Below, one piece after another: positions 9,791-41,441 of a stretch of 41,441 nucleotides of DNA. The notes under the pieces are model-generated. The model was not told where the DNA came from and made no database searches. It saw only the letters and a program-made list of their open reading frames with translations. Both the position numbers and the translations under genes were made by a program. The stretch is from Emiliania huxleyi CCMP1516 (lineage: Eukaryota): assembly GCF_000372725.1 (NCBI RefSeq), contig NW_005201202.1, positions 310,001 to 351,441 on the forward strand. Direction: 5' to 3'. Position 1 is the stretch's first letter, and every line of letters begins with the position of its first letter.

Positions 9791-11505
9791 TCACTGCCGC
9801 CTGAGGACGTGCGCGCACGCCATGAGCGCCCCGATCATCAAATGGTGCCGCCCAACCTTCGCCCACGCGGGGTCGGCCGAGACCACCTCAGCGAGCTCCG
9901 CCTTGCGAGTGGTGAGGAGCACGGCGCAGCCTCCCGGCCGCAGGACGCGCCGCCACTCTCGCAGCGCCGCGGCATACAGCCCCTCCCGCCGACCGTGCTT
10001 CCGCCCGAACGGCAAGTCGCTCAGCACGGCGTCCACGCTGCCGTCGTGAAGAGGCAGCCGCGTCGCATCGGCGTGCATCAGCAGCAGAGGCAGCGCCCCT
10101 TGCCGGGCTGCGGCATCGGCGTTGGCCGCCGCGCCCTCCAGCTGGGCGGCGTTCCGATCGCACCTGCAGTACAAACACGGTGCGTTTCGCACGGGCCGCA
10201 CACACACAGTGCGGGCAGCGCGAGGGCGGCAGAATGCGGCTGGAGATGGCCGACTACGCGCCTTCCCGCTGGCTCGAGGACGGGGAGGTGTGTAGAGCAT
10301 CTACTCTCGATGGCCCGACACACGCGGCCAGCGGCTGCAGCCGAGCGGCTTCGAGGAGGACGCCCGCTCTCCCACACATCGGGTCGAGGACTCTGCAGCC
10401 CGGCCGCAGCTCGGCGAGCGACGCGAGCGCCCACCCTATCGGCGGGTGCAGCGCGGGAGCGACACAGTAGCTCCTCGCCTGCGTCGTGAAGACACCGAGC
10501 TCAGGGCGGGAGGACGGTCTCGGGCCGTGTGCTCGGAGCACAGCGTGAGTACGAGGGAGACGAGTGCGATGAATTCGGCGGAATGCAGCGGAGGGCGCGT
10601 CTCCTCGAGTGGTAGCATGAGCACGGGGTTCGGCGTCCGCATCTAGAGCCCTCGCGCTCAGCCGGCCAGTCGTGAGCCGGCGGCACTCTGTGTGGGCGGG
10701 GAGCTCGACGACGACCTGCGCGCTGCTCCACTGCAGAAGTATCTCGAGCGCGTAGCCGCGCGCCGTGGCGCAGAAGCCTCCCCGCCTGGCCGCGGGAGCG
10801 TCGTGCCACGTGTGCAGAGGTGTCGCGCCATACTGCTACCGCTGCTACTCCGTGGCCTGGTCAGTGCAGGAGGTGCGGAGGAGTCGCGCCATACTGCTCC
10901 TACTACTCTCTGTTTGTTTGCCTGGCCGCGGAAGCGTCATGCCAAGCCTCGGCCAGCATCCGCCCAAGCTCCTGCCGTGTTACGCCGCCTCCATTCTCCG
11001 CGCCGCCACGCCGCGCTGTCACTCGAAAGGGGACGCTGCTGGCTTGAGCAGCCTCGGAGGCAGCTGTCGGCACACCATTGACTGCGGCTCGCCAGGCCTT
11101 CTCCAGCGCCGCTGACTGGGGAAGCACCTCCCTGGCGAGCAGGCAGCGGAACGCGTCTGAGAAGGCCTCGTCGCCGCAAGGCATGCGCGGCATCGGCGAA
11201 GCCCAGCAGAGCAGGCTCACACACTCGGCAGAGCGCAGCAAGCGCACTGCGGCGAGCGGAGCGGCCGTGCGGAACGCAACCTTGCCCTGAAGTACCGTGA
11301 CGCCAGTCGCCGCGAGCGACTCTGTGACTTCCGACGCCGCCAGATGTTCGAGCCCGATGCCCACATGGATGAGATAGTGAGAGCCGTCGCCGTGGAGTGG
11401 GAGAAATCGCGGGACGAGCGGCGGACACGGGCTCTCTGTCGGCCAACGCGTTGCGACGAGGTCCGTTCGGCGTCGGCCGGCCGCCGAGAGGAAGCTTGAG
11501 CTCAT
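9791..11505 (-). CDS. THUMP-domain RNA guanine-N2 methyltransferase (THUMPD2/3, Trm14-like), 416 aa; exons 11505-10922, 10785-10656, 10478-10315, 10163-9791
   Basis: Motifs GLEHLAASEV, LRSAE, FRVTARRGG, VLDPMCG, ADATRLPL and DAVLSDLPFGRKHG. Three GC-AG introns splice in frame. Confidence 0.85.
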
Positions 11506-12298
11506 GCGGCCGACGCTTACCTCCCAAGCTCACGTTCTCCACACCAGCAGCCAACGGCCGAGCTGGCGCCCAGCACAAGGCGGGCAGAGAGGCAATACCC
11601 GGGTATGGCTCGAAAGTACTCGAAAGCTCGAGGGACTCTCTTCCAAGGTACGGTTGGGGGGGAGTGCACCGCCGGCCCGGATACAGTGGCCGCCACTGTG
11701 TCCTGTGAGCTTGTTTGTGTCTGTGTGTCGCTCGTGCGTGTCGTCATCATCTGTCCAGCGTCCACCCATACCGCGTCGGTGTCCACATACATACATACGA
11801 AGAGAGAGACTACCGGCCCCAGCTTCGGCTGAGGGCTGACAAGCTGCCGAGCCCAAATCACTGTGCGAGTCGTGATTTCTTGTTGGTTTTCTAAAATCTC
11901 TCTCTCTACATACGCCACTGTACGCACTTAGGCGGGTTCTGCTAGAGGGCTACCGTAGAGCCGTACTGCTTATGTCATATCGCCTCTTATCAGGCTTATG
12001 GCCTTATGTAGCAGTAGGAGCCTACGCATTCGATGCGGCCCGGCCACACGGTGAGCACTCGCGCTAGCTAGCGCTCGCACGGCACCGGCAGCCACCGGGT
12101 TTCCGGGACTTCGAAGGTGTATCCGTTCTTCGGCGTTTTGTCGTCTCTCTCTCTGAATCCCCCATCCGTAGGATGTAGGAATAATCAATAAAGCCGTACT
12201 CACCGCGGGGAATGTATCACAGCAAGAAAACAAAAAAGCGCCCAAAAGCCCACGGCGGCAGCCGGCACGCGCGCACGGGCGCCCCGCCTCTCGCACCG

Positions 12299-15200
12299 TC
12301 AGGAGAGCAGGTCGCCGAACGGGTCAGCCGCCGCGGGCGCCGCGCTGCCCGGGCCTGGCGCCGTGGCGGGACTCGGCGCATCCGAGAACGTCGCCCACTG
12401 CATTCCACCCGGCGCTCCTCCAAGCATGCTGCCCCCGAAGCCGCCCTGCATCCCGCCCTGCATCCCGCCCTGCATTCCGCCCTCGAAACCGCCGCCGCCA
12501 CCGAAAGCGACCGGAAAGGCCGGCGCGGTGCTGCTGGCAAACGGGTCAAACGCGGTCGATTGCGCGGGCTGCGCGGGCTGCATCGGCGCCCCCATGCCCG
12601 CGGCGGGGAACTGCGCCGGCGGCATCGCCGCCCCCATACCCCCGGCGGAGAACGCCGGCGCGTCAAACGCGGCGCCTGCCGCCGGAGCGCCGCCCGCAGC
12701 AAACGCGGGCGGGTCAAACGCCGCCGGAGCGCTACCGGCGGCGAACGCGGGCGGGTCAAAGGCGGCCGGCTGCGAGGGGGGCGTCGCGGACGCCGCCGCC
12801 CCCTCGGCGGCGGCAGAGAAGCCGAACAGCTCCGAGAGGTCAAACTCGTCGGCAAAGGCGGACTCTGCCGACGGCAGCGGCGGCGGAGCGCTCGCGTCGC
12901 CGTCGAGGTCGATGGCGTCGAAGTCGATGAGAGACGCCTCCGCCGCCTGCTGCGCCGGCGAGGCCGCGCTCTCGGCCGACGTCCGCTGCGAGCTCCCCGC
13001 GCTCCAGTCGAGCAGCGCCGTCACCGGCTTGTGGTCCGAGACGAGCACTCCTGCACGGAAGGTCCGGGGGAGGTTCGGCGAAGGGCGAGGGACGGCCGTG
13101 CAATCGGAGGCGCGCGCGCGCCCTGGCATGCGACGTACGCGACCGGCTTGCACGCGGCGCCTTGCGGCTCGAGCCAGAGCACGCGGTCGCAGTACGACGG
13201 GACGCGTTGTTTTTCAGACGAGTCGTACCTGAGAGCGGAGGGAGGGAGGGGGGGCTGGGGAGGGGAGCTGGAGGGGAGAGGGTTGGCGCGAGGGGCAGGC
13301 GAGGGAGAGGGGAGGGGGGGGAGGGGGGGGGAGGGGGGGAGGGGGTAGGAGAGGGAGGGGAGCTGGGGGTGGAGGGAAGGGAGATGCTTACCGGCTGGTG
13401 CCAGCGTCGTACTTGTACGTCGGCTGGAAGTCGATGCTCGCCTAGTCTCAGGTACTCTCGGGTACTCTCGGGTACTCTCGGGTACTCTCGGGTACTCTCG
13501 GGGCGCTCTCGGGTGCTCTCGGCTGGAAATCGATGCTCGCCTCGGCAAAGCCCTGGAACGCGAGGCCCGCCCGCTGCTGCGCGCGCAGCTGGTCAATCTG
13601 CAGCAGCTTCCCCCACTTGCCCTGCGCGACGGCGTCGCGCACGACCTGGTTCTGCTCCTCCTTTGCGCCGCCCGGCTCGAGCCGGTAGTTGAGGTCGCCG
13701 GCGAAGACGCACAGGTCGTGCTCGAGAGGCGACGGGAAGGGGCCGCCGCGCAGCCGCTCTCCGTACGCCTTTTGCAGGCCGGCCACGATCTCGTCAAACG
13801 TGTCGTTGCGCTCGTCCGCGTGCGAGGCTCCCGCGGGGAGGTGGGCGTTGATCAGGCAGAGCTGCGAGCCGTGGACAGCCATCCGGACGGCGGTGCCGCC
13901 CTTGTTGCCCGCGCGCGCGTCGCCGACGCCGAAGCCGCACTTGATGACGTCGGCACGGACGTGCGTCACCGCGCTCACCAGCCGCGGGTGGACGTACACC
14001 ATCAGCAGCACACCGACGCACTGCTCCATGCCGACGGCGACGTACCGCTCGCCGTGCAGCGACGTGAGCACAGCCTCGACCCGCGCGGCGCACTCCTTGC
14101 GCCGGCTCACGTCATCGCTCAGCACGTTCCGCGCGGTGAGGTCGACAAACTCCTGGAAGCCGATCGAGTAGATGTCCGGCACCGCCGGCTCGTGCTGCGC
14201 GCCGTTGCGGAACCACTCGCTCAGCAGCGCCTCAGAGCAAACCTTGCCGTTGACGTTCCAGGTGCCGACCCAGAGCCGCACCCGCGCGCCGCCGCCGCCG
14301 CTGCTGCCGAGGGTGCTCGAGCGGCGGAGCGCCGCGGGCGCGACAGCGCCGCCGAGCAACGACTCGATCGCCGCCTGACGCCCGTCCTCGAGGAACGTCT
14401 CGTGCACGTACCGGTTGACGGCGATGCGGCCCTGCTGCACGGTGCCCTTAGCGCGCTCGATGAGCGACCGCTTGCCCGAAGCCTCGGGCTGCAAGCTCGA
14501 CGCGCTGCCCTTGCCGATGTTTGCGGTGCCCGCGTACTGCATCGACACGGCGTCGCCCGTCGTGGACCACATCTGCTGCAGCGAGGCGAGGAGCGCCGGC
14601 TCGCACGCGCGCGCCACCTGCTCCGCTGTCGAGCTCAGCGCGAGGGCGGAGGCGAGCTCGCGCAGCTGCGCCGACGCGGCGTGCAATCCGAGGGCGGCGA
14701 GCATCAAGTTGGTGCGGTTGAGGCAATCGAGGCAGTTGACGCGCACCAGGCCCTGAGTCCACAACAACAAGACCATCCTGATCGGGGATCACGACTACGA
14801 CCACTCAACTAGTACCACCCGACCTGCTGCGTCCGCCGCACCACCGCCGCCGCCGCCGCCGCGCCGCCGCGCCGCCCGCCCGACGCCAGCCGCGGCCCCT
14901 GCGCGACCAAGTGGCCGATGGAGCGCACCTAAAAGACGACACGCGCGATCGAAAGAGTGTGTCAAGAAGAGCGTCGCCCTGGTGGCCGAGGGGGCGCACG
15001 TCGGCGGCGAGGTGCGCGACGCCCGCCTTGAGCCCGTCGGCGCGGCTCGACCTTGACGCCTGGCGAGATGCAGCCAAGATGCGGCCGAGATGCGGCCGAG
15101 ATGCATCCGAGATGCATCTTTGACGCCTGGCGCAAATCGAAGGGGACGTACTTGATCCGCTGCCCCGTCGGCACGCTCACGCGGGCAGCGCACTCGGCGA

Positions 15201-16437
15201 GCGCAGCGGCAAGGGCCGCCTCCTCGCCCTAGGCAAGGTGGGGGCAGGGCAGGTAAACTTCTCCACACACACAGGGGCGGTGGGGCAAGGGCCGGGCAGC
15301 CCTCGCGACTCCACGTCTACAGACAGGAGCCCCGTGGCATGCAGGTATGGTGAGATCTGGGGAGATCTGAGGAGATCTGGGGAGATCTGGGGAGATCTGG
15401 GGAGATCTTCCGCATCTAGCAGCCAGCGCCTTGGCGTCGAGGAGCGAGACGAGGAGGGCGGGAGAGCCGTAGGCGGCCAGCTGCTGTGCGACGTGCCGCT
15501 GCAGCGCTGGCAGGCAGAGCGCGGCGTTCCGCGTCAGCTTCGGCTTGGTGTTTACCTTGATCGTCGACGTGCGCTGCTCCCAAAACAGCGGTGCCGAGCC
15601 GCGCACCTGGACGAGCGACGCCATCGCCCCCTCCGCGCCGCCTCGCAGCTCGAAGCGGAGGGACTGCTCCGTCTCGACGTAGTTTGCGGTGTGGCCGTCG
15701 TCGTTGATCCCGCGCGCCTTGAAGCGCGTGCCCGCGTGCTCGCACGACCGGCGTGAGACGAGGCACGCCGTCATCGAGACGCCCGAAAGAGGCTCGAGCG
15801 GCTCGCAGAGGAGCGCGCCGTGGACGATCGGGCTGAGCCACGGCCCGATGCCCGCCTCGACGAGCGGCTGCAGCGCCGCGCCGTTCCACACGAACCGCCC
15901 CTCCACGTGCTCCCACGCCAGGGCCTCCTTCCCCGCCGCCGCGAGCGCAAACTGCCGCTGCAGCGTCAGCGTCAGCGGCGCCTGGTGCGAGAAGAAGAAG
16001 TCGCCGGCCTCGAGGAGCTCCTTGAGCTGCAGCCGCTGCTTGGTGCCGTCGGCCGGCCCCGCCGCGTCGGCGACCGCGCCCGCCGCGCCCGCTGCAGGCC
16101 TCGCGTCGCTCGCGCCGAGCGACAGAAAGCCGACCTTGGTCACCGCCGCGGCGCGCACCACGCCGTCCGCCGAGAGCACCCCGCGCTCGGCGGAATCGGT
16201 CACGATGACCAGCGTCCGCTCGTCCGGAAATGAGAGCACGCCCACCAAGGCGTGGACGACGCAGGAGCGCGCCCGTGCCTGAGCGGGGCCGATCAGCCTT
16301 TCCAGGTCCGAGGGCGACACGACGCGGATCTCGCGGCTCCGACGGCTGACAAGAAGGGCGGCGCCGTGCGAGCCGGTGAAGACGTAGCACGAGTCGTCGG
16401 GTGAGGCGTAGAGGCGGCCGAAAGCCGAGTCAAGCAT
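12299..16437 (-). CDS. Synaptojanin-like protein (Sac1 domain + inositol polyphosphate 5-phosphatase + endocytic tail), ~1131 aa; exons 16437-15430, 15228-15127, 15059-15000, 14928-14824, 14752-13541, 13441-13392, 13228-13122, 13050-12299
   Basis: Sac1 motifs SRRSCEHAGTRFKARGINDDGHTANYVETEQ, QVRGSAPLFWEQ and RVNCLDCLNRTN. 5-phosphatase motifs GTWNVNG, GFQE, GNKGG, GDLNYR, PTYKY, PSYCDRVLW and SDHKPV. All exon phases are consistent. Confidence 0.92.
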
Positions 16438-17704
16438 ATCCGTGTTTATCGCAGGCAACCGGGAAGAAACCAGTGCTCTTGGAAATGGGGAGGCGGTAAT
16501 AGCTGTGTGGTGGCGGCGTGCCGTCCTCCCATCCCTCCCTTGGGTTGCCCGTTTTCTTTCTTTCTTTAGGCGGTAATAGGAAGGTATCAGGGCGTATGGG
16601 GTCAGTCGTTCACCTTGTCCTGCCTGCAGCCTCGAAAGGGCGGGGCTGTCCCGGCACCCGGGAAGCCGGGCAGCGTGACGCCGCCACCTTAACCTCCCAT
16701 ACGTGATTGAGGCTTCTTCCTCGGGCTGTTCCATCTCCTCGTCTCTTTCCCACCTAGGCGGGGCGGTGGGGGCGGCGGGCGCGGGGTGCGGGGTGCGGTG
16801 CGGTGCGAGATTGTGTGTTAGTGAGTGTGTGTGCAGCGTCATGTGTCCTGAGGGAGGGTGTAGAGGATGTAGAGTGTAGAGCGCTGTAGAGCTGTAGAGA
16901 TGTAGAGCGCTGTAGAGCTGTAGAGCTCTACATCCGCCGCGTGACGATGCGCCTCCGTTGTAGAGCGATGTAGAGCGCGATTTTGCTGTAGAGTTTGTTG
17001 TAGAGGCTCTACAGCAAAACCGCCGGGAAGGCAGTGACTCAAAAAGGTCGAGCCGCGCTAATGGGGTGTCTCCGAGCTTACTGGAGCTCTGATGGACAGC
17101 CCTGACTATCCCTGACACACAGAGAGTCACTCCGACGACACACAACACCCTATAACTGCGTCATGACCAGCCTGCCATGTGTCGCCGGTGCCGCATTCGT
17201 CGCTGTGCTTCTTTAGCAGGCGGTGGACTGTCGGCTGCGAGGACGGTCGCATTTGCGCGAGGCGAGGCGATCATTGTTGAGCGTTGCATGAGCCATGACT
17301 CGCGCCAGCGCGTGCGGGAGCTCCTGGCTGAGCGTTGAGTCCAAGCGAGTTGCGCTGGCCACGATCGCTACGCCGAGCCGAGCTGACGCGCCGAGGCGCT
17401 GGCCAGTCGCAGCCGTGAGGCATGCCACAGCAGCAGAGGCACCTGCCACCCATTGGGCGGGCAGACAGAAGGCCAGGGCAGCACTGGCAAGTGCAACGCG
17501 CCTCATGTCGGAGAGCGACCGTGCCTCGTTCGCCGCTTATGATGTAGAGTTTGTTGTAGATATTTCACGTTGTAGAGCGCCTCTACATCGCTCTACAACG
17601 GAGGCGCATCGTCACGCGCCGGATGTAGAGCTCTACAGCTCTACAGCGCTCCAGAGCGCTCTACATCTCTACAGCTCTACAGCGGAGCGCGCTACTTTCT
17701 CCCC

Positions 17705-18125
17705 TTGCCGCCTCCTCCCTCGCCGCCTCATCCTTCGCCGCCTCATCCCTTGCCGTCCTCGCCGCCCCCTCCCTCGCCATCTCCTCCCTCGCCGCTTCCT
17801 CCCTTGCCGCCTCATCCCTTGCCGCCTCCTCCCTCACCGCCTCCCCTCTCGCCTCCTTCCCCGCCGCCTCCTCCCTCGCTTCCTCCTCTCTCGTCTCCTC
17901 CCCCCTCGCCGCCTCCTCTACCTCCTCCTCCCTCGCCGCCTCCTCCCTCGCCGCCGCCTCCCTCGCCGCCTTTCCCCTGGCCGCCTCCTCCCTTGCCATC
18001 TCCTCCCTCGCCGCCCCCCCCCCTCGCCGCCTCCTCCCTCGCTTCCTCCTCGCTCGCCGCCTCCTCCCTTGCCGTCTCCTCCCTCGCCGCCTCCTCCCTC
18101 GCCTTCGCCTCCACCCTCGCCGCCT
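17705..18125. repeat. Degenerate 15-bp tandem array (CCTCCCTCGCCGCCT)n; reads SPPPP on + and REEAA on -
   Basis: Repeat unit visible directly in the sequence; open in several frames. Confidence 0.85.
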
Positions 18126-18164
18126 CAAGTAAGCTGCTCGCCGCGGAAGCTGCTCGACAGGTGC

Positions 18165-19456: not shown

Positions 19457-19514
19457 ACGCGTGTTCACGACACACGACGACACACACGCGTGCTCCGGCC
19501 TCCGCGCTACGGCT

Positions 19515-22500
19515 CTAGAGAGGGAGCGCCGGCCTCAGCGCCTTGTTCTCACGAAAATCGTGCACCCGCTCGACCACCTCGAGCACCGCGATGACGGCGC
19601 CGAGCAGCAGGAGCAGCGCGCTGCACACGAGCGCCACCGCCAGCTGCTGGCGCGGCTCGAGGTACAGCTGCATCTCCCACCCGTGCGGCGCGTCGAGCGG
19701 GTGGGGAATGACGGTCAGCTGCGAGTTTGGCAGCACCGCCTGCTCGAACCGCCGCAGCCGACCCGCCGGCATCCCGACCATTAGCTGCTCGACGTAGTCG
19801 TTTGTGAGGCCGAGGCCGACGAGCAGAAAGGGCGAGGCCAGCGGCGAGTACCCGCCCTGCGGCAGCTGCACCCCCACCCGCGACTGCTTCTGGCGGTTCC
19901 ACGACCAGATCGACGACACGCTCACGCGCGACCAGCGGGTCGGCAGCGACGTCGCAAACTGGTACGTCACCGCCGGCTGGTGCAAGCTCGGCTGGCGCAG
20001 CCAGGCGCCAAACGGCCGGTCGACCACCTGCGCGGCGCACCGCCCTGCGGCGCCGACGCCGCCGCTCGCCTCCACGGCCGACGCCTCCACCGCGGCGAGC
20101 GCGCTCGAGTTGAGGCCGCTGCCGCCGCCCCAGCCGCCGCCGCCCCAGCCGGCCCGGGCGTTCTCTCCGGCGGCGGGAAGCGTGACTGTCCCCTCCTCGC
20201 CGGGGACGACGGCGAAGGCGTCGGAGGCGCACGCGCCGTCCGTCGTCGTGGCCTTCAGAAAGTACTGCCCGCTCACGCCGGAGTTGCGCCACGCGCGCAG
20301 CCGGCCTAGTCCCATACCTCCAGAGTCTCGAATCCAGTGTGGGTTCAGTCCCGTGGGTGGTGCGGTAGCCCGCCGTCGGCTTGCAGCGCGAGAACGTCCC
20401 ACGTGCCGTCCTCGTACAAGTCGTAGAAGGCGCCCGCGCTCGCGCCGCCGAGCATCTGGAGCGAGGCTTTGGTTCAGTGCTCCCTTCCAGGAGTGCTCGG
20501 TGGTGTCTCTCGCGGCCGCGTGGAGTGCGTGGACATCGGCGAATCTCGGCGAATCTCGGCAAATCTCAGGTGTGTGGTGTGCGTGGGCCTCGCCTAATCT
20601 CGGCAAATCTCGCCTGATATCGCCCAACCTCTGCGAACCTCGGCTAGTCTCGGCGAATCTCGGCCGTGAGGTCTGCGCGGCCCCGAAGGCCGCGCCTCGG
20701 CCGCCTCGGCCCGTGTCTCGGAAGTGGCCCGGCCCGGCTGCGTCCCGGACGTGTCTCTGAAGAGTCTCGGACAGTGTCGCGGCACCGGGTAGAGGCGCAG
20801 CTCGGACGGCGGCGGGTAGACGGCCGTCTCCGCCTCGTACAGCCGCAGCGCGCCCTCGTCGCCTCCGCCGGCCTCGAGGCAGCGCAGCCTGCAGCACGGT
20901 GCGTGGACGCGCCGTCGACGTGTCTCGGGCGGGGGGGCGGTGGAGGTGCAGCGCGCGGGCGGTGGGGCATGGATGTGGAGTCTGCGCTCGCGGCGGGTGG
21001 GGGCAGGAGAGGGGTGTGGGTGGGGGCAGGAGAGGGGTGTCGGAAGCCGAGGGGGGGGGGGGGGGGAAGGGGAAGGGTCCAAAAGGGGTGTCCAGGGGGG
21101 AAGCAGCGTCGAAGGGTCTCGGAAGGGTCTCGGAAGGTCTGAGAAGGGTCTCGGAAGGGTCTCGGTAGCTTCGAGGGGGGGTGTCGGAGGGGGGAGTGTT
21201 GGAGGGGGAAGGGTCTCGGAAGGCGTCGCCTCTCGTCGTTGAAGAGGAGCAGCACGCACGGCTCTCCCGCAGAGCAGGGCGAGAGGTCCGACGCGCTCGC
21301 GTCGGCGGGCGCGACTAGCGGCAGCAGCGCGTCGGGGAAACCGTTGAGGTCGAAATCGGCCACCGACAGCGTCGGCGGCCTCGCGCCGAGCGGATTCGCC
21401 AGAGCCCACCCGCCTGGGAGCGCCCACGCCTGCTTGAAGAACGCGAGCGCGCGCGGCTGGCAGAGCGACTTTGGCTGCGGCGGGCGCGTCGCGCAGTCTG
21501 CCTCTGCGTCGAACTGCTGACCGACGGCCGGGCGGCTGCTCGTGAGGGCCGGGGGGTCCGGCTTCGGCTCGCCGAGGACGGCATACCACGCGTGGAGCTC
21601 CAGCTGAGAGGAGGAGGAGGAGGAGGAGGAGGAGGGAGGAGGAGGAGGAGGAGGGAGGGGGGGAGGACTTGTTTGCCAGGAAGAGAAGGTCGACCGCGCC
21701 GTCAGAGTCGAGGTCGGCAAACGCGAGTTGCCCCGCGCCCTCGGGGAGAGAGAAATTGTAGTCGGGCGCCGCGGCCCAGCGCGGCGCCCCCACCTTTGCC
21801 GCGTTCTGCACCCAGACCAGCAACCGGCACGCCACGGTCTCACAGCCGCGCGGCGCGCTGCTGTCCAAACCGACCCTGCTCGCCGCGCCGTCGGGCAAGG
21901 CGACGACGACTAAGTCGGCGATGCAGTCGCCGTCGAGGTCGACCTAATCACAGGCGGCGAGCCGTGAGTAAGACGCCGTTCACAGCAAGCTGCGCCGCCG
22001 TGAAGGCCGCGACTTGCGCGTTCGAGTTTGGCGCCGCGGGCATGATCAGCGGGCCCGGCTCCTGCGTCATCGCACGCGCCAAATGTGAGGGGGCGGGACT
22101 ACGGTCCCGTGCCGTGCCTGCGGAGCATCGCGTGAGCAGACAGGCGGCGCGTGCAGCGGACACGGCTGAGTACAGCCGAATACCTCTGCCCTCTAGCAAC
22201 CTCTCGGCAACCTCTCGGCCATCTCGCGGCTATCTCCGGGCTATCTCCGGCTATCATCTAGGGGCGAGGCTACCCCCTTCTCGCCAGAGCTGCTCGCGTC
22301 GGCACCGTCCGCCGCGTGGCCAGCCGCGTCGCCTATGAGGAAAAAAGAAATGCGGGACCCGAAATGCCGGCACACGGGCCAGCCGTGCCTGCGCCGTTCC
22401 GCGCCGCGGCAGCGTCCAGCCGCCGCGACGCCCCCACCGCCCCGGCCCGCGTGTCGGCACGCCCGCCGCCCGCCCGCCCGCCGCCCGCCGCCAACCCCGC

Positions 22501-25083
22501 CGCAGATGCGCCGGCCGCCGGCGCGGGCCTCCGCGCTGCCGCCTTCGGCAGCGGCTTGCTTGGCCGACTGCGAAGGCCGCCCGCCGCCACGGGGACGCCC
22601 GCCGCGGGGGCATACGCCGCGCCGCCGCCGCCCGCCAGCCACCGGGCCTGCAGCAGCGACGCGGGCGGGTCGGCGCCGCCGTCGGCATCGGCGGCGGCGC
22701 CGCCCGCCGCCTCCTCCACGCCACCCTGCTCGCCGCCGGCCGCCGCCGCCGACAAGCGCTCGCGCGGCGCCGCGGCCGCCACGCTGCGGCCGATCGGCTC
22801 GCTCACGGCGCGGTCCGCCGCCGCCTCCTCGTCGCCCCGCGCGGGCGCAAAGGCTCCAAACGGAGTCGCGACCGCGAAGTCGCCGGCTTGGCCGCGCGGT
22901 CGCATGAGCGCCGCGGTGCTCGTCGGCGCGGGCAGACAGCGCGTCCCGCCCACCACCTGCTCTCAGACAGTCTCGGGTCACCTCGGGTCACCTCGGGTCA
23001 CCTCGGGGGCGTGTCGCCCCGGCACCCAGCCGTGCACCTAGCCGTGCGCTGCAGAGGAGCTGAGAGGCGCGAAGCAGGCCTGCCTGCCCGTCCTGCCTGC
23101 CTGTCCTCCTTCACGCCCTCAGCTCTGTCTGCCTGTCGCCCGCGCCGTGTCTGTCTGTCCGGAGCCTGCCTGCCCGTCCTCGCACTGCCCGTGTGTGCTG
23201 TGACCTTGGGCCCAGGGGGGGTGTGCTTGCGCGAAGAGGCCTCGCTTGCCCGTGTGCGGTGTGCCGTGCGACTACCCGCCTGCGGTGACCCGGCCGGGGC
23301 AGCTGCTAGGGGCAGCTGCTAGGGGCGATCGAAGGCACGCTCCAAAGCCTCGCACCCTCCTGCCCCGCCCTCCAGAGCCTCGCACCTGTCCAGCGCGTGG
23401 AGACAGGCGCGCGTCCCGCATCTACACACGCCACCGCGGTGCAAGTCAGACCGCAGCCGCAGCAATCGCCAACGCCGCACCTCTCGTTGAGCATGCCGCA
23501 GCTCGGTCCGCCTGACGGAGTTCCGAGAGGGGTCCAAGAGGGGTCCAAGAGGGGTCCGAGAGGGGTCCGAGAGGGGTCCGAGAGGGGTCCGAGAGCGGTC
23601 CGAGCGGGGTCCGAGAGGGGTCCGAGAGGGTTCCGAGAGCGGTCCGAGAGGGGTCCGAGAGGGGTCCGAGAGGGGTCCGACCGCCGCCGCGGTGCGCACA
23701 GACGGAACGCGCCGAACACTGCAGCACCCCGTCTCTCGGCTATACTTCGGCTATGCAACACGCCGCATCTCGGCTATACTTCGGCTACACAGGTGTCCGG
23801 GACGGGTCCTGCACACGTCGACCACGCGTCCGCCGCGGAGGAGGGCGTGGAGGGCGGGCGCTGGAGGCGGAGGCGCTGGAGGCGGAGGCGCTGGAGGCGG
23901 AGGCGCTGGAGGCGGAGGCGCTGGAGGCGGAGGCGCTGGAGGCGGAGGCGCTGGAGGCGCGGAGGGCGGCGGAGGGCGGTGTGGTGGGCGGGATGGTCGC
24001 GGCGGGGATGGAGGCGGTGGTGGGCGCGGCCATAGCAGAGAAGGCAGTCTCGTTGGCGGCCGTGTCTTGGCTACACCTCGGCCTCGACTATATCTCGACT
24101 GTATCTCGGCTACCTCGGCTATATCTCGGGTGATCGCTCGCCCGTCTCTTCGGTTGCGTTGGCAAAGCCGGCGAGGAGGGCGAAGCTCTTGCCGCCTAGA
24201 TGACCCGAGATGACTCGAGATGACCCGAGATGACTCGAGATCAGGCGAGGGGGAGCTCTTGCTGCCGTCGACGTCGACCGGCGTCGGCTGCTCCGAGGCG
24301 GGCGGCAGCGGCGTGCAGTGGAAGCTGTGGTTGCACAGCCTCATGTTGACCAGCGAGGAGCAGTACGGGTGCGCCTGCTCACGGGTGGTGGCGGGCTCAC
24401 GGGCAGAAAGGGCTTGCACAGGAGACGGTGCCGTGGGGCGGCGGGGAGGGCGAGAGGGAGGAGGCAGAGGCGGGTGGGGAAGTGGCGGCGGCGACAGTGA
24501 GGGCGGTGGCGGTGGCGGCGGAGGCAGCGATGGAAGTGGCGGTGTCGGCGTCGCGGAGCTTCACACTATTGATTCCCATCGTATTCAATAAGATTGCTGC
24601 ATAGAATCGCCTCGAAGACGACGGCGTCGAGTGCTCCGTTGTAGTCGTAGTCGCCCGGGATGAGGCCGAGCAGGCCTGGCATTGGCCAGGTGCTGCGCTC
24701 CTCGAAGCGGAGAACGTCGGGCCGCTGCGCGCGCGCGGGGCGAGCGGTGGCGAGCGAGGCGTGAGCAGTGCGCCGGAGGGAGGCGGGGGCTGTCGGAGGC
24801 AGGTGCGCGAACGCGTGGGCCGTGCGGCGTCTGCGCGGCGGCTGGCTCTCACCCAGAGCCACGCCGCGAGCTGCTGGTTGCCATTCCCGTCGAGGGACGC
24901 GGCGAGGATGTCGATGAGCGAGTCGCCGTCATAGTCTGCAAATGCGAGTGGCGTTGCGTTGAAGCGGCTCAGTCCGACGTTGGCGGTGACGTCGCGCAGG
25001 ACGGTGCTGGTCGGCACGTAGGGATTGACGGGGAGGCGCAGCACCAGGTCATGGCCGGGGTCGGTCCTGTCGTCCGCAGGCAT
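19515..25083 (-). CDS. ITFG1: LINKIN / T-cell immunomodulatory protein (FG-GAP repeat membrane protein); 5' end and middle exons uncertain
   Basis: LRDVTANVGL..LAFADYDGDSLIDIL, IPGDYDYNGALD, PNSNAQ|VDLDGDCIADL, FADLDSDGAVDL, VADFDLNGFPD, AFYDLYEDGTWD, GLGLTNDYVEQLMVG, VLPNSQLTVIPHP..W.MQLYLEP, then a C-terminal TM and short charged tail. Confidence 0.85.
23524..23682. repeat. Intronic 11-bp tandem repeat (GAGAGGGGTCC)n
   Basis: About 14 near-identical copies; the same unit type occurs at ~34757-34800. Confidence 0.9.
23859..23960. repeat. 15-bp tandem repeat (GCTGGAGGCGGAGGC)n
   Basis: About 6 perfect copies; reads PPPPA or ASSAS on the minus strand. Confidence 0.9.
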
Positions 25084-28733: not shown

Positions 28734-29760
28734 CATGCTGTCAGGCTGTCAGGTGCTGTCAGGTGATCTGTCGGGCTGTCGGGCAGCTGTCAGGCACTGT
28801 CAGGTGCCTCTGTCAGACCAGCTGTCAGGTGCTGTCAGTGCTGTCGGGTGCTGTCGGGTGCGTGTCTGACATGCGAGGGGCTCTGTAGCTGTCGGGTGCT
28901 GTCGGAGCTGTCGGGTGTTGCTGTCAGACGCTGTCGGAGCTGTCAGAGCTGTCAGGCTGCTGCTGCTGTCAGACGTTGGGCTGTTGCTGTCAGGTGCTGT
29001 CAGGTGGTGCTGTCGGGCTAGCTGTCGGGGTGCTGTCAGGCTCTGACACACACCAGCCACACTTATGACACTATCAAGAGGAGACCAGCGGGTACGCAGC
29101 TGCCCCCTTCCTACGGCGTGATCACGCCGGCAGGGGCGGCCGCCTGGGCCGCAGCCTGGGGAGCGCAGATGGCGGCGCAGGCGCAGGCCGCGGCGGCGGC
29201 ACAGACGGCGCGCGGCGGCCACCCCACCCAGACGCCGTAGGCATATGGCTGTAGGGCCCCAGAAGGCTAGCTGGTAGCTTCATTTGTAGTAGCAGCACAG
29301 CCGCCGGTGCTAAAGCCGTAGAGTCTAGAGAGGGGTGTCCGCAGAGCCTCTGCCAGAGGTGGGGGCTGGGGCGGGAGGGTTGAGAGAGAGACCCATGACC
29401 ATCCCATGACTACATGGACCACACTCACATGTTCATGTCTTTGCATGTAATAGTTTTGTTATACCCTCATGGGGCACAAGAAAGAGGCTCTACGGGGGGG
29501 GTCTGACTGTGTACGGTCTGTGCTGCTGTCGGGCTGTCAGCGCTGCTGTCAGGCCACTGTGTGCTTTCGGGCTGTCGGGCAGCTGTCAGGCTGTCACGTT
29601 AGGGCCTGACAGCGACGGAGCGCCTCGCCTGTCAGGCTCTGCTGTCAGGCTGTCAGATACGTGCTGTCAGACTGTCAGAGAAAGTGCTGTCAGCGCTGTC
29701 AGGCTGTCGGGCACTGTCAGGCGCTGTCCGGGGTTTGCTGTCAGGCTGTCAGACCAGGGC
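28734..29760. mobile_element. Element with two blocks of CTGTC(A/G)G repeats
   Basis: Dense CTGTCAG/CTGTCGG words at ~28737-29047 and ~29500-29755 around a non-coding core. The ends show only weak similarity (CCATGCTGTCAG...CTGTCAGACCAGGG). No TSD found. Confidence 0.6.
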
Positions 29761-32700
29761 TCAGGCAAGGCCGTGGCACTTCCCCAGATGTGGCCGCCCG
29801 CCCAGCCCGGCCAGCACCCGCTCGAGCGCCGCTAGGCGTCCCCACCCTGCCGGCAGGGCGACGCGCCAGAGCACGTTCGCGCACACGACCGGCCCGTCCG
29901 CGTTGACGCCCTGCTCCGCTCTCCCGGGCCCGCCCACGAACTTGAGCTCGAGCGTCTTGCCCGCGCAGCCGCTCGCGGCGAGGAAGCCCGCGCTGCCCAA
30001 CGTGGCCACCAGCTCTGCGAGCGCCGCCCGCGGCAGAGCGTACTCGAGCGACACCCACCGCGCCGTCGGCCCCGGCTCCGCCGCACCGCCCTCGCCCTCG
30101 CCACGCGGCGCCGCGAGCGGCGGCGCGCCGCGGTACCAGTTCTCGCCGTCATAGCGCGCCGCGCCGGGTGCCGGGGCGCGGCCCACGTCCTCGAGCGCGC
30201 ACGCGCAGAGCTGCGGCTCTCCGAGCGCCCACCAGACCCAGAGGTGGCGGTAGGCCTGTGAGCGGTGAGTGAGGAGGAGATGCTCATTGATTAGGCGGGT
30301 GCACGGGTCAGTGCTCCGCATCTAGGGTGGCAGGCCTCGCACATAGCGTCGCAGCGCGCGACAAACGCGGCCAGGTCCATGGTGTGCACGTGTCGCCGCA
30401 CGTAGTACCGAGGCTCGCACTCGAGCGTGATGCTCACCTGCACGAGATGACTTGACGTTGTACTCTGCAGAGTACAGGCTCGCACGCGAGCGTGATGCGC
30501 CCACCGCCACGCCCCGCACGCCCAGAGAGACGCGCGCAGCCCGCAGCGACGGCGGAGCAGCGGGCGCGGAGACGCCATGGCCTTCCCCGCCGCGGCCGCC
30601 GCCGCTCCCGTTGGCCGCCGTGCCGGCAGCGACCGCAGCCTCGCCCTCCCCCTCGCTACGTCTCTCCCCCTCTGCCCCTCCCCCTCCCCGCTCCCCGCAC
30701 GCCTCGCCCCCCGCCCCTCCCTCTTCGGAAAGACTCACCCGGCGGCCGGCGCCGCACCGCAACTCGAGCGCGACCACCGCGTCCGCCAGCGTGCCGTCCC
30801 GTGGCGCCGAACCGTGCGACCCCGCTCCTGGTGCAGGGACATGGGGAGCTGAGGGCGAGAATGCAGTGTCGTGCGGTGTGGTCAGACTCTGAACGGCCGA
30901 ACTATGGCTGCAGAGCGACTGCAAGCAGCAGCATCGCGGCTGCAAAACAGCGGAACACGCTGCCTTCGAAAGTGCTATTTGGAAGGCAGGGATCGGCTGT
31001 TCTGCATCTGAGTGCCCCGCGCCGAGCGTCGCCCCGCCGACCGTCTGCTCGAGCAGCATCGGCCACGAGCCTACGGTCAGGTCGTGCGCCGCGAGCACGC
31101 GCCGCAGCTCGCGCAAGCTCAGCCCCGGCTCAACCGTCACCCGCCGCCGCGCCGCGTCAATGCAGAGCACGCGCCGCATCCCGCCCAGCCGCAAACTGAG
31201 CACGCCCGCCCCCTCGCCGCCCGCCTCGCCGCCCGCCTCGCCGCCCGCCTCGCCGCCCGCCTCGCCGCCCGCCGCCGCATAGGAGCCGCTCCAGCTGTGT
31301 GCAGCGCCCAGGGGGAGCGCCTACAGCCGAGAGAGAGCCGAGATGTAGCCGAGAGATAGCCGAGAGAGATCCGAGAGGTAGCCGAGAGATGGCCGAGAGG
31401 TAGCCGAGAGATGGCCGAGAGGTAGCCGAGATCCGCGGGGCGCGCCTCCAGCCGCAGCGAGGCGGCGAGGGCGAGGGCGCCGCCCACCTCTGCCGCCGTG
31501 GCGCACGGCAGCAGGAGCCTCGGCACAAAGAAGCGCGTCCCGCTCGCGTCGCTCACCTCGGTGGGCGGCACGGAGACCCATATCTCCCCATATCTCCCCA
31601 TATCTCCCCATATCTCCCCATATCTCCCCTCACCTCGGTGGGCGGCAAGGAGAGCAGCGGCGAAGCTGCAGCGCCACTCTCTGCCGCCGCGAGCGCCTCG
31701 GCCGCAGCCACCACCCGTCGCGTCTCGCTCGACCGGAGCAGCATCGACACGAGAGCGAGGTCGCGCAACGCCTGCCGGACGTGTCGTGGGCGTGTCGTGG
31801 GCGTGTCGTGGACGTGTCGCGGGCGTGTCGTGGACGTGTCGCGGGCGTGTCGCGGACGTGTCGTCGTGTCGCGGGCGTGTCGCGGGCGTGTCGCGGGCGT
31901 GTAGCGGGCGTGTAGCGGGCGTGTCGTGGACGTGTCGTGGACATGTCGTGGGCGCGCCTCGTCGCAGCCGAGCAGGCAGTGGGTGCCCCACGGCGCGGCC
32001 GCAAGGCTCGCCTGCAGGAAGGTTCCGAGAAGGTTCCGAGCAGCTTCCGAGCAGGCAGCGCCCCGCAGTCGCAAGGCTCGCCGGCCACAGCCCCGCGCGG
32101 CGGACGACCAGCGCTCTCACCGCGGTCAGCGCGTGCTCGAGGCTCTCGGCGACGCCGCCCTCCACCCACCCGTCGCCGTCGAGAAGCTGCGTCGTGGCCT
32201 CTCCGCCGAAGCGCTCGAGCGCGACGCGCGCCCGCCCGCACCTGTGCCCGCCCCCCTCCTCCGCCGCCCAGAGGCAGAGAGCGCCGAGCTCGCCCTCGAG
32301 AATCAGCGACGGAGGCGCGGCGGCGGCGGCGGAGGAGGAGGAGGAGGAGGAGGAGGAGGAGGAGGAGGAGGAGGAGGAGGCGGAGGCGCGGCGAGGACCG
32401 CCCGAGCTGAGTGCGAGGGTGGCGGCGGAGCTGCAGTGCTCGAAGCGCACCCAGCCGCATAGCGAGCCGCCGCCCGCGCCATCCGCGCCGCTGCAGAGCG
32501 CGGCCGAGCCCTCGACAGGCTCTCCGAGCGCCTCTCGGAGCAGCCGCGCCCAGTGCACGCCCGCGTCCACCAGCCACGCGCCTTCTCCGGCCTGCGAGCG
32601 CCACGGCGGCTCCCGCCCGCCGCCCGCCGCGCGGTCTGCCGGGTCGGCTGGGTGGTGGTGCGAGAGGTGCGCCGAGACCACGCGGCCGATGGCGCCCTCC

Positions 32701-33167
32701 TGCAGCCGCTCGCGCAGCCAGCGGACGGACGGCTTGAACTGCCAGTTCTCGAGCACCAGCCACACGGGCGCACGCGGCCCGAGCTCGGCGATCGTGTCGA
32801 GGATGCGGCGGGCCGCTTCGATCGATGGCGCAGCCGGCTTCTCCGAGAGCACGTGCTTGCCGGCGCGGAGCGCCGCCTCGACCGCTGCCGGCATCAGCGG
32901 GATCGGCAGCACGAGCAGCACAGCGTCCACGTCCGCATCTGCAAAGAGCTGCTCCATCTTGGCGAAGCGGCGCACCTCCCGCTCGGGGTCGGCGGCGTGG
33001 ATCTTGGCCTCAGCTCGCGCCATGGACTTGCGCGTGCGCGAGCACACGGCAGTGAGGCGCACGCCGACCCGCTGCTCGAGCGCGAGCAGCGCCGGCACGT
33101 GCGCCCGCAGTGCAAACCACGAGCAGCCGACCAGGCCGAGCTTGAGCCGCGGTGGCTCCCACGCCAT
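29761..33167 (-). CDS. Fusion of a Gfo/Idh/MocA NAD(P) oxidoreductase with an FAD-linked aldonolactone/alditol oxidase (FAD_binding_4 + ALO), 868 aa; exons 33167-32082, 32011-31958, 31771-31634, 31556-31446, 31320-31023, 30827-30505, 30437-30336, 30255-29761
   Basis: Gfo motifs KLGLVGC, ADADVDAV, GKHVLSEKP, DAGVH and EALRDL. ALO motifs LGAAHSWS, VTVEPGLSL, QTVGGATLGAGSHGS, AARVSLGVRGV, EYALP and GGRPHLGK. Seven introns splice to one open frame. Confidence 0.82.
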
Positions 33168-38264: not shown

Positions 38265-38680
38265 CGAGAGTTTCCGGCAACCCAGAGGGAAACCAGAGGG
38301 TCCCCAGCACTTGGAGTTTCCGGAAATTTCCAGGGAAACCAGAGGGTGTTTGGTGCTGCATTCTGGCAACTCCGAGTTTCCCGGAGTCTGAGAGCTGGTT
38401 TGGGGCAAGATCTGAGGCGAAACCGAGGAACCGGCAAACTACCGGGTATTTTCCAGGCACATGACATGTATACCTGGGGTTTTCCAGGATTACCCGCAAA
38501 ATACCCGGTATTTTGCCGATTAGGCTGATTTGGGGCCCAAACCAGCCTCAGACTCGGCTCAGAGCCCGGGAAATTGAGTGATGTATGATGAGGAGTTTCC
38601 CCAGGAAACTAGAGGGTGCTGTAGGGAACTGGTAGGGAAACGATCAGGAAACACGGAAAGGAAACCAGGGTCCAGGCAGG
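38265..38680. repeat. MITE/foldback-like region with nested inverted repeats and GGAAAC/TTTCC words
   Basis: GAGTCTGAG(A)GCTGGTTTGGG (~38385) pairs with CCCAAACCAGCCTCAGACTC (~38535). ACCGGGTATTTT (38441) pairs with AAAATACCCGGT (~38497). GGAAAC.AGAGGG occurs x3. Confidence 0.55.
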
Positions 38681-39021
38681 GTGCGAGCGAGAGGAAACAT
38701 ACGTAAAGCCTAACATACGCGGCGAGCCGACGGCGTAATACTGCCGCCGCGACCAGCGCGGGCGGTCGCCGTAGCCCTGAAGCCAGGCGCAGCTTGCCCA
38801 TGGAACAGAAATAAGGAAGACCGAGAGAGAGAGTCAGCGAGCTGCACGGCCCAGAGGCCCACAAGTGCGGAGGAGAGCAGGGTCTTCGCGGCACGGGCCT
38901 CCACGCCTAGGCTAGGCATTCTCGCGGCTGTGCAACTCAGCCCTAGCACCCAGAAAAGCAAGAAATCGGAGCCGCATCGCAGCCTGCGACCACAGTTTCG
39001 ATCGGCAGCATCGCAGCCCGA

Positions 39022-40089
39022 ATGCTGCCCTGCCTCCTCCCTCTCCGAGCCATGGTCGCCTGCCTGCTCGCCATGTCGTCCGCCAAGTCGATGTACCGGC
39101 CGCAGCGCGCGGCCGCGGCGGCCGCTGCGGCCGCACCGTCCACGGCGCCGGCTCCCGCGTACAACTACTCGCGAGACACGATGGAGGCGTATCAGGACGC
39201 GTCCGCGTCCAACGCCGGGAGATATCAGGCCGTCCGCGACCGCCTCGACGTGTCCTATCACGGCACCTACGCGCTCGCCCGGCAGCGGCTGCAGGACCGG
39301 CTGATTGGCTGCGCGCTGCGCGGGGTGCGAGGCGGCCGGACGAGGCCGTGGATCATCTTCACGGCGGGCGCGATGGGATCGGGCAAGAGCCGCACCTTTG
39401 AGTACCTGGTCGAGCGCGGCATCATCCCGCTGCAGGGCGTGCAGATGCTCGACTCGGACGCCTTCAAGACGCGGCTCCCTGAGTGGGAAGGCTACCTGGC
39501 GCGCGACCCGCTCTCGGCGGGGCTGCACACGCGGCGGGAGAGCGGCTACATGCTCGAGATCGCGCAGGAGGCGGCGCTGCGCGAGCGGCGCCACGTCTGG
39601 GTCGACGGCTCCCTCCGCGACGGGGAGTGGTACCAGTCCGAGTTTGCACGGCTGCGCAGGGAGCACCCTGACTACTCGATCGCGATCGTGCACGTGGTGG
39701 CGACGCGGCAGGCGGTGCTCGAGCGCGTGAAGCGGCGCGCCGCCGTCACCGGCCGCCACGTCCCCGAGGCGGAGATCGACGACTCGCTCGTCCGCGTGCC
39801 GCCGGCGGTGCGGCTGCTCGCGCCGCGCGTCGACTTTCTGGCCGTGGTGGACAACTCGGCCGAGCGGCCGCACCTGGTCGAGTACTGCACGGGGGAGACG
39901 TGCAAGCTGTGCGTCGACGACTGGGAGCAAATCGCCACCCGCCTCGAGTGCGACGCGGACGAGGGCGCCGCCGCCGCCGCCCCGCCCGAAGAGTGCCAGA
40001 TCCACGACCTCGACTGGGGCGACGTGTCGAAGAACTTTGAGGCGGCGCGGCGCACCTCGAGCGCGGCGAGCAGCGACGAGTGGGGCTGA
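39022..40089 (+). CDS. Zeta-toxin-like P-loop kinase domain protein with a hydrophobic N-terminus
   Basis: WIIFTAGAMGSGKS (Walker A), LDSDAFKTRLPE, HTRRESG, VWVDGSLRD, R..RA..TGRHVP, VVDNS; single exon, 355 aa. Confidence 0.8.
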   Translation: MLPCLLPLRAMVACLLAMSSAKSMYRPQRAAAAAAAAAPSTAPAPAYNYSRDTMEAYQDASASNAGRYQAVRDRLDVSYHGTYALARQRLQDRLIGCALRGVRGGRTRPWIIFTAGAMGSGKSRTFEYLVERGIIPLQGVQMLDSDAFKTRLPEWEGYLARDPLSAGLHTRRESGYMLEIAQEAALRERRHVWVDGSLRDGEWYQSEFARLRREHPDYSIAIVHVVATRQAVLERVKRRAAVTGRHVPEAEIDDSLVRVPPAVRLLAPRVDFLAVVDNSAERPHLVEYCTGETCKLCVDDWEQIATRLECDADEGAAAAAPPEECQIHDLDWGDVSKNFEAARRTSSAASSDEWG

Positions 40090-40628
40090 CGCGGCGGATC
40101 CGCACGCTCCTGTACATCTCTGGTTGGCGAGGGTCGGGGGAGGCATGCCATGTAATTATCGAGAGGGGGGGTTGTGAGGTCTCAGCGCGGCAGCCGCGTT
40201 CGTGTCGCCCGTGTCGGCCAGGGCCTCACACCGCATACAATTTTGTCTATTGCAATATATGTCTATTACGCCGTTCTCTCTGTCGAATGTTTAATCTCAG
40301 TGTGCGCGCCGCTCTGGGCCGCTCTCCGTGTCTCGATCTCTCGTCGCTTGCGTGCCTGCAGCTGCACTGCCCGCTCTCTCGCCCCTCGCGCCCCTCCCCC
40401 TCCCCCCGCTCAAACCCCCCGGTCGCGGTCCGAGACCGCGCGCGCGCGCGGGCGCGGCTCTCAGTTTCACTTTTTCGCAGCGTACGAACTTGACGTGCCA
40501 CTTCTCCGCACGCCGGTGTCCCCGCCGAGAGGGCGAGGTGGTGGCAACAATGGTGGTCGCAACAATACCGTACAGCCTCTCGAGTGGCGGCGGAGGGGCG
40601 GCACGCCCTCCGCCCCCCCGCGCGTCTC

Positions 40629-41441
40629 TCACGCGCGCTCGGCGTGCAGCGCGCGCGCGTGCAGCTTGAGGGCGAAGAGCGGGTGCTGCACCTCGGGCAA
40701 GAGCTCGGTGGCCTCGTCCAGCGGGCTCAGGTAGAGGTCCTGCAGCAGCAGCCGCGCGCCGCGCTTGCCCGCCTCGACCGTCTCGAGCGCGTTCGCCGCG
40801 TCGCACGTTTCGACGTGCACGCGAAGCTTCTCGGAAAGGTCCTCCTCCTTGAGCCGCTTCGCGCGCACCTGGCTCAGGCGCGGGGGGAGGGGGGGGGGGG
40901 CTCCGGCTCAGGGGGGAGGTGCGCCCCCCGTATGCTCTCCCGCTGCCCTCTCCGCCCGCCCCGCCCCGCCCCGCCCCGCCCCGCCCCCACACGGCAGCGC
41001 GCGCCTGCTCGAGCAGCGCGTCGTGCTCCGCGTCGCGCGGCCGCGCCCGCTGTCGCCCGCCGCCCGCCTCGCCGCCCGCCTCGGCCAGCTGCGACATCAT
41101 GCCTACGCTGACAGCACCCCCCCCCGTCGAGCTGCGGCGGGCAGCGATGCGCCCGACGTGCGGGCTGCCGATCAGCGCGCGAGAGACGTCGGGGATGTAC
41201 TTTGTCAGGTTCTTCTTCTTCTCCCGCTCGTCGGCGAGCGCGCGCTGCTTGACGATCTTCGCCTTGAGCTGCAGGCAGCACCTGCGGAGCAGCAACGCGA
41301 GCGCGTCAGACGGCGCGGGCGCGGCGGCGTCCTCGGGCGAGACGCGGCCGGCGCTTTTCGATGGCGCGTTTGACCGCCTCCCGCACCTCCGGGATGTCGT
41401 CCCCGATGTACTCCTTGCCCGTCCCCTTGAAGGGCACCTGC
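40629..41441 (-). CDS. TOP6B: DNA topoisomerase VI subunit B, 3' part (gene begins beyond the window)
   Basis: VPFKGTGKEYIGDDIPEVREAVKRAIEK|CCLQLKAKIVKQ...NLTKYIPD and EKLRVHVE match the plant/algal TOP6B transducer and C-terminus; three GC-AG introns. Confidence 0.9.

Follow-up and report, generated by a model that had tools for sequence, protein, structure and literature searches.

The current analysis concerns introns whose ends carry copies of the adjoining exon sequence, found within a 41,441-nucleotide (nt) stretch of the Emiliania huxleyi CCMP1516 genome (contig NW_005201202.1, positions 310,001 to 351,441 of the forward strand), hereafter referred to as the window. These exon copies are both real and frequent, as they occur in 9 of the 29 introns modelled in the window and in 3 of the 5 introns of an orthologous gene from a second alga. 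New introns are likely still being made through the copying of a shared short repeat into staggered DNA breaks. The reading we favor, with a probability of roughly 0.55, is that a captured piece of a 10-11 bp repeat array is inserted into a staggered exon break by microhomology priming, with the break site being duplicated on both sides.

The 29 introns were modelled by hand in six minus-strand genes (A, 3 introns; B, 7; C, 7; D, 7; E, 2; and G, 3) and account for 3,885 of 40,912 bases of the window. Outside this set are the introns in the middle of gene C, which has no alignable homologue there, and two GMP synthase introns with N-run breaks, while the boundaries of one gene E intron and all gene G introns were set by reading frame only. 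GC donors predominate (21 GC, 8 GT). An initial annotation of the window had listed 13 introns in five genes, describing at least 10 as bounded by direct repeats of exon sequence and three more as weaker cases. All 13 were recovered on the minus strand at the same coordinates with the repeats as written, apart from a 2-nt offset in the 22/23 match of 30438-30504, and each begins with GT or GC and ends with AG.

Every intron was scored by the anchored extension match between its donor side and its own acceptor side, and the null distribution was provided by the 812 mismatched donor/acceptor pairs among the 29 introns, which hold both the splice consensus and the base composition fixed. The mismatched pairs score 3.3 on average, with a 99th percentile of 8 and a maximum of 11, whereas nine introns score 11-22 and thus lie at or above the best mismatched pair. 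The scores of all 29 introns sum to 215, compared to 100.8 +/- 9.0 in 20,000 permutations (maximum 147), and the repeats thus exceed matched controls. The tally of at least 10 is reduced to nine clear cases by the same control, since 40869-41004 (score 8, p 0.015 uncorrected) is marginal and consists of a low-complexity GC run, and the three weaker cases (10479-10655, 30256-30335 and 30828-31022) are non-significant (score 6 each, p ~0.10). The 16 introns absent from the initial annotation exhibit a faint excess of their own (60/160 matches at positions 3-12 vs 47.3, p 0.012; anchored score, p 0.07), which is what decayed copies would be expected to produce. In most of the clear cases it is the next exon that has been copied, with the previous exon serving as the main arm in only 2 of 9. 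When gaps are allowed, the copies lengthen to ~44 nt at 32012-32081, 30-35 nt at 30438-30504, 29 nt at 14929-14999 and 26 nt at 24196-24265, giving a range in the window of ~13 to 44 nt. The individual introns are as follows.

10479-10655, minus strand: gene A GC-AG intron with a weak 6-nt copy and AGATG at +12; gap-free junction, score 6.
10786-10921, minus strand: gene A GC-AG intron whose last 23 nt are a copy of the upstream exon end; no 10-11 bp array; score 19.
13442-13540, minus strand: gene B GC-AG intron with a 22-nt next-exon copy followed by a 10-bp array, the first unit overlapping the copy by 4 nt; gap-free junction, score 21.
14929-14999, minus strand: gene B GT-AG intron with an 18-nt next-exon copy (~29 nt with a gap) and no array; variable protein region, score 12.
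15060-15126, minus strand: gene B GC-AG intron with a 13-nt repeat across both junctions and an 11-bp array as filler; score 13.
15229-15429, minus strand: gene B GC-AG intron, new relative to the initial annotation, with no significant copy, AGATG at +13 and a 10-bp array that matches 31557-31633 in opposite orientation over 48 nt (89.6%, E 1e-11); gap-free junction.
24196-24265, minus strand: gene C GC-AG intron with a ~26-nt gapped next-exon copy and a 10-bp array ending in the acceptor; gap-free against 2 orthologues, score 11 (p 0.0012, equal to the best mismatched pair).
30256-30335, minus strand: gene D GC-AG intron with a weak copy and AGATG at +13; gap-free junction, score 6, also present in the independent contig L002.
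30438-30504, minus strand: gene D GT-AG intron with a ~30-35-nt next-exon copy followed by a 16-nt palindrome; no 10-11 bp array; gap-free junction, score 16, same copy in L002.
30828-31022, minus strand: gene D GC-AG intron with a weak copy and AGATG at +14; gap-free junction, score 6, also present in L002.
31321-31445, minus strand: gene D GC-AG intron with 9-nt matches on both sides and an 11-bp array with a unit that is found again, in reverse, at 22201-22255; gap-free junction, score 12.
31557-31633, minus strand: gene D GT-AG intron in which a 25-nt repeat gives both splice sites (GAG acceptor), with a purine-rich 10-bp array; gap-free junction, score 22.
31772-31957, minus strand: gene D GC-AG intron, new relative to the initial annotation, with an 11-bp array and no significant copy; gap-free junction, score 5.
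32012-32081, minus strand: gene D GC-AG intron with a ~44-nt next-exon copy bearing two deletions and merging into an 11-bp array; score 13, gapped score 45 against a cross maximum of 29.
40869-41004, minus strand: gene G predicted GC-AG intron with a marginal 11-nt repeat; score 8, p 0.015, boundary by reading frame only.

Several features of the ten headline intervals agree with their being introns. In nine of them the length is not a multiple of 3; the other one, a phase 0 interval of 99 nt, has TAG in frame as its final three bases. The initial annotation had also claimed that splicing restores the original coding sequence, and this agrees with five of the ten junctions (13442, 24196, 31557, 31321 and 30438), where removal of the predicted intron yields gap-free blocks against orthologous proteins, while extra residues are left at 10786, as discussed below. 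Three further junctions (14929, 15060 and 32012) lie in variable protein regions and the junction at 40869, having no orthologue for alignment, was set by reading frame only.

An independent view of these introns comes from metagenomes, in which 13 of 79 loci were examined by translated search and three proved to be intron-bearing orthologues (L001, L013 and L002). L001 is a 16-kb locus from a second alga containing an orthologue of gene D with 386 of 806 aligned residues identical. For this one gene and one species, absence from an orthologue, which the initial annotation had put forward as a test of recent gain, was indeed observed: none of the seven gene D intron positions of the window occurs in L001, which has five introns of its own. 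Three of the five contain perfect next-exon copies of 31, 15 and 29 nt, one has a 6-nt match and one has none. Four of the five have a 10-bp array in common and are identical in their final 9 nt, and three are alike over 37-68 nt up to the acceptor, while their 5' ends are locus-specific. The start of the L001 array unit, which contains no AG, is complementary to the last 7 nt, as judged by eye and without a formal inverted-repeat test, and one of the introns re-copies 9 nt of its own duplication. At 4404-4623 of L001, a 31-nt exon copy plus array unit is present twice in tandem, which could reflect a nested event, an unequal crossover or an assembly loop.

The contig L013 is an allele of L001 (96% identical over 1,491 nt) that does not have the intron bearing the 15-nt copy and instead contains exactly one copy of those 15 nt. 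As L013 keeps the other three introns in this span, it is therefore genomic, and a repeat of 15 nt is shorter than the usual assembly word lengths, which makes a collapse unlikely. The perfect 15-nt copy points to a recent gain of this L001 intron. Another gene on L013 has an intron with a 10-nt junction repeat as well. The polymorphism that the initial annotation had proposed to look for is thus evident for one intron of the second alga, whereas none was seen in the species of the window. L002, an independent metagenome contig 99.3% identical to 29660-31214 of the window, contains introns 30256, 30438 and 30828 with the 30438 copy unchanged, and since this is a separate assembly, the 30438 duplication is not an artefact of the window assembly. 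Relatives of the gene D fusion also occur as single open reading frames (ORFs) of 791 aa in L003 and 765 aa in L007, which we count in favor of the insertion reading. Full-length orthologous proteins on multi-kb metagenome contigs likewise hint at intron-less orthologues; these were not counted, the gene caller being unknown. A synaptojanin search of viral contigs found none.

The material between the copies was previously described as mutually unrelated filler, a description that does not survive closer inspection. A 10/11-period scan of the window identified 12 arrays, nine in modelled introns and three in the unmodelled middle of gene C, while 22 units, not all of them within introns, emerged from Tandem Repeats Finder under looser settings. 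The array units share longer substrings than shuffles (4.45 vs 3.62 +/- 0.10, with 0 of 2,000 shuffles reaching 4.45), a CTCGG core is found on either strand in 11 of the 22 units, and the introns 15229-15429 and 31557-31633 have their common 48-nt array in opposite orientation. The presence of shared units in both orientations points to a template located elsewhere, with another intron of the genome as its likeliest source. A local exon origin of the units was tested and own flanks were no closer than others (p 0.76). Together with the interiors and acceptor end shared among the L001 introns, these results lend no support to the earlier notion of filler as new synthesis or to its sharp "non-Introner" label. 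The sharing seen among the window introns is at the level of the arrays: comparison of the 29 introns gave three pairs at E<1e-3, two being C-rich low complexity and one convincing, and k-mer sharing relative to dinucleotide shuffles is modest, with only a few 6-7-mers above all 200 shuffles. Where the exon copy meets the first array unit, the two overlap by 4, 8 and 4 nt in the three examples inspected, which were chosen by eye.

A second recurring element within the introns is the motif AGATG, which is located 8-14 nt after the donor in 6 of the 29 modelled introns, once in each (clustering p ~1e-6), and at 0 of 29 exon starts. It is found at 10298, 10640, 15413 and 30319 as well as in 15060-15126 and 30828-31022, often within TAGATGCGG, and probably also in two unmodelled introns (22255 and 23419). 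In reverse, it resembles the end of intron 24196-24265. AGATG may be the insertion end of an element or a splicing signal helping weak GC donors. As for the distribution of the arrays, pattern scans for further haptophyte DNA returned 0 matches plus 1 chance match in a coding region, and also gave 11 viral and 120 prokaryote-collection loci, none of at least 1.5 kb coming near the array count of the window or L001. The 10-11 bp arrays containing ATCTCGG in these prokaryote-collection and virus contigs (L081-L211) were chosen by pattern and so carry no frequency.

Based upon this anatomy, in which exon is followed by copy plus filler and then exon again, and upon an empty allele having one copy, the simplest event is an insertion between two offset nicks. 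The staggered break proposed by the initial annotation therefore remains the simplest reading, and the same anatomy recurs in a second alga together with presence/absence alleles. The long and variable copies argue against a cut-and-paste transposase, which would leave a fixed footprint. The predicted introns of this kind are likely insertions of recent date. Presumably, two offset nicks would leave 10-45 nt of exon for duplication, a free end would anneal by a few bases to an array elsewhere, most likely in another intron, and be extended, and fill-in would then seal the break. An insertion into coding DNA should survive only when it is cleanly spliced out. Most commonly, the first copy would begin with GT or GC and become the donor, with the captured piece ending in AG and becoming the acceptor, while a copy holding AG/GY could sometimes supply both splice sites. 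As GC donors, used by 21 of the 29 modelled introns, are tolerated, more sites would be open to such insertions, and the copies would afterwards decay by substitution and small deletion. Both repair synthesis from a DNA template (polymerase theta type) and reverse transcription from intron RNA would fit as the enzymatic activity. Intron birth by this route is probably ongoing.

A number of observations weigh against capture of an array piece at a staggered break. Firstly, 20 of the 29 introns have no individually significant copy and 3 of the 9 clear cases (10786, 14929 and 30438) have no 10-11 bp array. Secondly, the junctions are predicted from reading frame and protein alignment, and two of them are imperfect: removal of 10786-10921 leaves 3 residues in excess of all 3 orthologues compared, and the acceptor of 31557-31633 has to be a GAG, which is rare (1 of 29), as every AG in or adjoining this intron is preceded by G. 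The latter may be a young, poorly spliced insertion. Thirdly, the comparison of orthologous DNA covers a single gene in a single further species, the empty allele L013 could have arisen through intron loss, and the window's own species yielded no presence/absence allele, L002 having all three of the introns it spans. Lastly, the positional AGATG of the window and the invariant acceptor end of the L001 introns have the appearance of element termini, and this favors a mobile element.

A mobile element is also the alternative that survives best, although we regard it as rather unlikely. According to this explanation, the filler would be a non-autonomous mobile element, broadly speaking an Introner, that inserts through target-primed reverse transcription, or excised intron RNA that inserts likewise, with the 3' end of the RNA fixed, the 5' end truncated at microhomology, and a long and variable target-site duplication. 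Variable duplications and 5' microhomology are features of non-LTR retrotransposition. The acceptor end common to 4 of 5 L001 introns, three of them over 37-68 nt, would be accounted for, as would the position of the microhomology at the variable end, the AGATG at +8 to +14 in 6 of 29 window introns with its reverse likeness at the end of 24196-24265, and the occurrence of both filler orientations. However, the window introns share array units only and not whole bodies, and neither poly(A) nor an autonomous element was seen in the 41 kb of the window plus the 16-kb L001 locus. Furthermore, the end could have been set at AG simply by selection for clean splicing, given that the L001 array unit has no AG. 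The GY at which the copy starts and the AG at which the filler ends both follow from such selection, which thereby blurs the distinction between array capture and a retro-mobilised element.

A quite improbable alternative, near the view of the initial annotation, is tandem duplication of an AG/GY exon segment, or repair of a staggered break with locally templated or untemplated filler, in either case followed by independent array growth. Both splice sites do lie within the repeat at 31557-31633 and 15060-15126. The 16-nt palindrome of 30438-30504 starts in the copy end and one L001 intron re-copies its own 9 nt, as in synthesis-dependent end joining as described in the relevant passages of PMC7407515, and the arrays of similar units in prokaryote and virus contigs make convergence possible. 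Conversely, the array units resemble their own flanks no better than they do those of other introns (p 0.76), identical units are shared between genes in opposite orientation, the L001 introns have a common terminus and the acceptor is outside the repeat in most cases. By far the least credible explanation is that these are old introns with ends made exon-like by splice-site consensus, GC bias or assembly error, since, even though a GC content of ~70% and a GY-rich consensus easily give short matches, 20 of 29 introns are individually non-significant and the doubled L001 intron could be an assembly loop, the mismatched-pair control fixes consensus and composition, the 30438 copy is reproduced in the separately assembled L002, and the window intron positions are not shared with L001.

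The genes harboring these introns reside on a eukaryotic contig with a GC content of 57-76% (1-kb bins outside the N run), and two of them have named homologues from Prymnesium parvum and Chrysochromulina, which marks the contig as haptophyte. They are as follows.

Gene A, 9800-11510 (limits approximate), minus strand: RNA methyltransferase with 3 coding introns.
Gene B, 12300-16437 (end approximate), minus strand: synaptojanin-like (Sac1 plus inositol 5-phosphatase) with 7 introns.
Gene C, 19515-25083, minus strand: ITFG1/FG-GAP-like with 7 modelled introns, the middle (~22050-24130) being outside the model.
Gene D, 29770-33167 (end approximate), minus strand: Gfo/Idh/MocA oxidoreductase fused to an FAD-binding domain, 868 aa after removal of 7 introns.
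Gene E, minus strand: GMP synthase with 2 modelled introns.
Gene G, minus strand: topoisomerase VI B-like with 3 introns; the Pfam match is weak and below cut-off, and a structure search with a fragment gave 0 matches.

The frame of gene C is shifted by one extra base in a TCC run at ~21636, due to either an assembly error or a polymorphism, and a candidate short intron near 21603-21668 was rejected in favor of this one-base frameshift. Long intron-less frames of lower GC are also present on the minus strand at 5141-8116 (choline transporter-like) and 25449-27545 (no Pfam match), unlike the genes of high GC that are rich in introns, and a further intron-less reading frame on the plus strand at 38947-40089 has a zeta-toxin / P-loop kinase Pfam match (E 1e-18). 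The window contains other repeats as well. A long inverted pair with CTACAG/CTGTAG-type repeats at 16850-17010 and 17545-17690 is followed by a 15-bp array (17678-18150), and the whole looks like a mobile element or its remnant. Degenerate CTGTCAG-rich arrays at 28736-29045 and 29515-29760 lie outside the modelled genes and belong to a family distinct from the intronic repeats.

When compared to known systems, the process works like repair-associated or Introner-type intron gain, yet it fails the defining features of each as described. Staggered double-strand-break repair was proposed for Daphnia pulex neointrons (Li et al. 2014, PMC4202315), which, in the passages concerned, are likewise flanked by direct repeats of adjacent exon bases and segregate as presence/absence alleles. 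However, those repeats are 4-12 bp (33 cases) and the inserts are AT-rich and of mostly unknown source, whereas here the copies are ~13-44 nt and GC-rich, GC donors occur, and the fillers share a 10-11 bp array and termini, although gain of the Daphnia type would call for inserts without homology to other introns. Introners, as portrayed in parts of Gozashti et al. (2022, PMC9860276), can also derive one splice site from a target-site duplication and carry in the other, and shared interiors like theirs exist in L001. Their duplications are 3-9 bp (4 bp in a Chrysochromulina example), unlike the long and variable ones of the window and of L001 (15, 29 and 31 nt), and among the 29 window introns the sharing seen is at the array level rather than end to end. 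Lineage-specific positions and presence/absence were found in the second species only (L001 and L013). Among the matches listed in the supplement of PMC9860276 are five E. huxleyi Introner families, which comprise 653 elements and have mean lengths of 37 and 70 nt; their target-site duplication status is "?" for four and "N" for one, and the present introns may overlap with them. Families are also listed for Chrysochromulina, Prymnesium and Phaeocystis. Tandem genomic duplication of AGGT-bearing exon segments, according to the sections consulted of Yenerall and Zhou (2012, PMC3443670), makes the whole intron an exon copy. A duplicated AG/GY similarly gives both sites in 31557-31633 and 15060-15126 and the coding sequence is restored, but here only an intron end is an exon copy, the filler is foreign, and most acceptors come from the filler. 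Locus-specific repeats at both intron ends, present once in the mRNA, are shared with the dinoflagellate identical repeated intron boundaries (Mendez et al. 2015, PMC5032977) and the Amoebophrya introner elements (PMC7789003), although the repeats are shorter in the relevant portions of these papers (2-11 bp and 3-5 nt, respectively), the latter elements having terminal inverted repeats and non-canonical ends, and those portions do not mention a minisatellite filler. Term searches found no mention of haptophytes in the main text of the 2024 Introner preprint and no description of this anatomy in PMC4580454, PMC11347835, PMC3488318, PMC8469720 or PMC7407515. Similarly, no description of long exon copies with minisatellite filler in haptophyte introns was found in the literature searched, which mostly did not include subscription papers, such that one may nevertheless have been published.

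About a third of the modelled introns have kept a readable scar of their birth, and the second alga offers fresher examples together with an intron-less allele. Both the duplication and the donor sequence are measurable, and public haptophyte genomes and metagenomes could therefore separate repair capture from RNA-templated insertion. Searches for Introners that demand homology from end to end, together with duplications of a short and fixed length, would tend to overlook introns of this class or assign them wrongly. On a more speculative note, and as a doubtful extension, haptophytes might possess a self-feeding intron factory without a conventional transposon. Its template would be excised intron RNA, of which the 3' part, up to and exactly including the terminal AG, would be reverse-copied into nicked exons, giving rise to a long duplication of variable length. 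Introns would thereby beget introns, with the 10-11 bp arrays as the replicating unit, and the factory would be active now, with wild populations segregating for its alleles. Read et al. (2013), in their paper on the E. huxleyi genome, are said to describe both many GC donors and intronic 10-11 bp repeats, and the insertion of array pieces into staggered exon breaks would link these two haptophyte traits.

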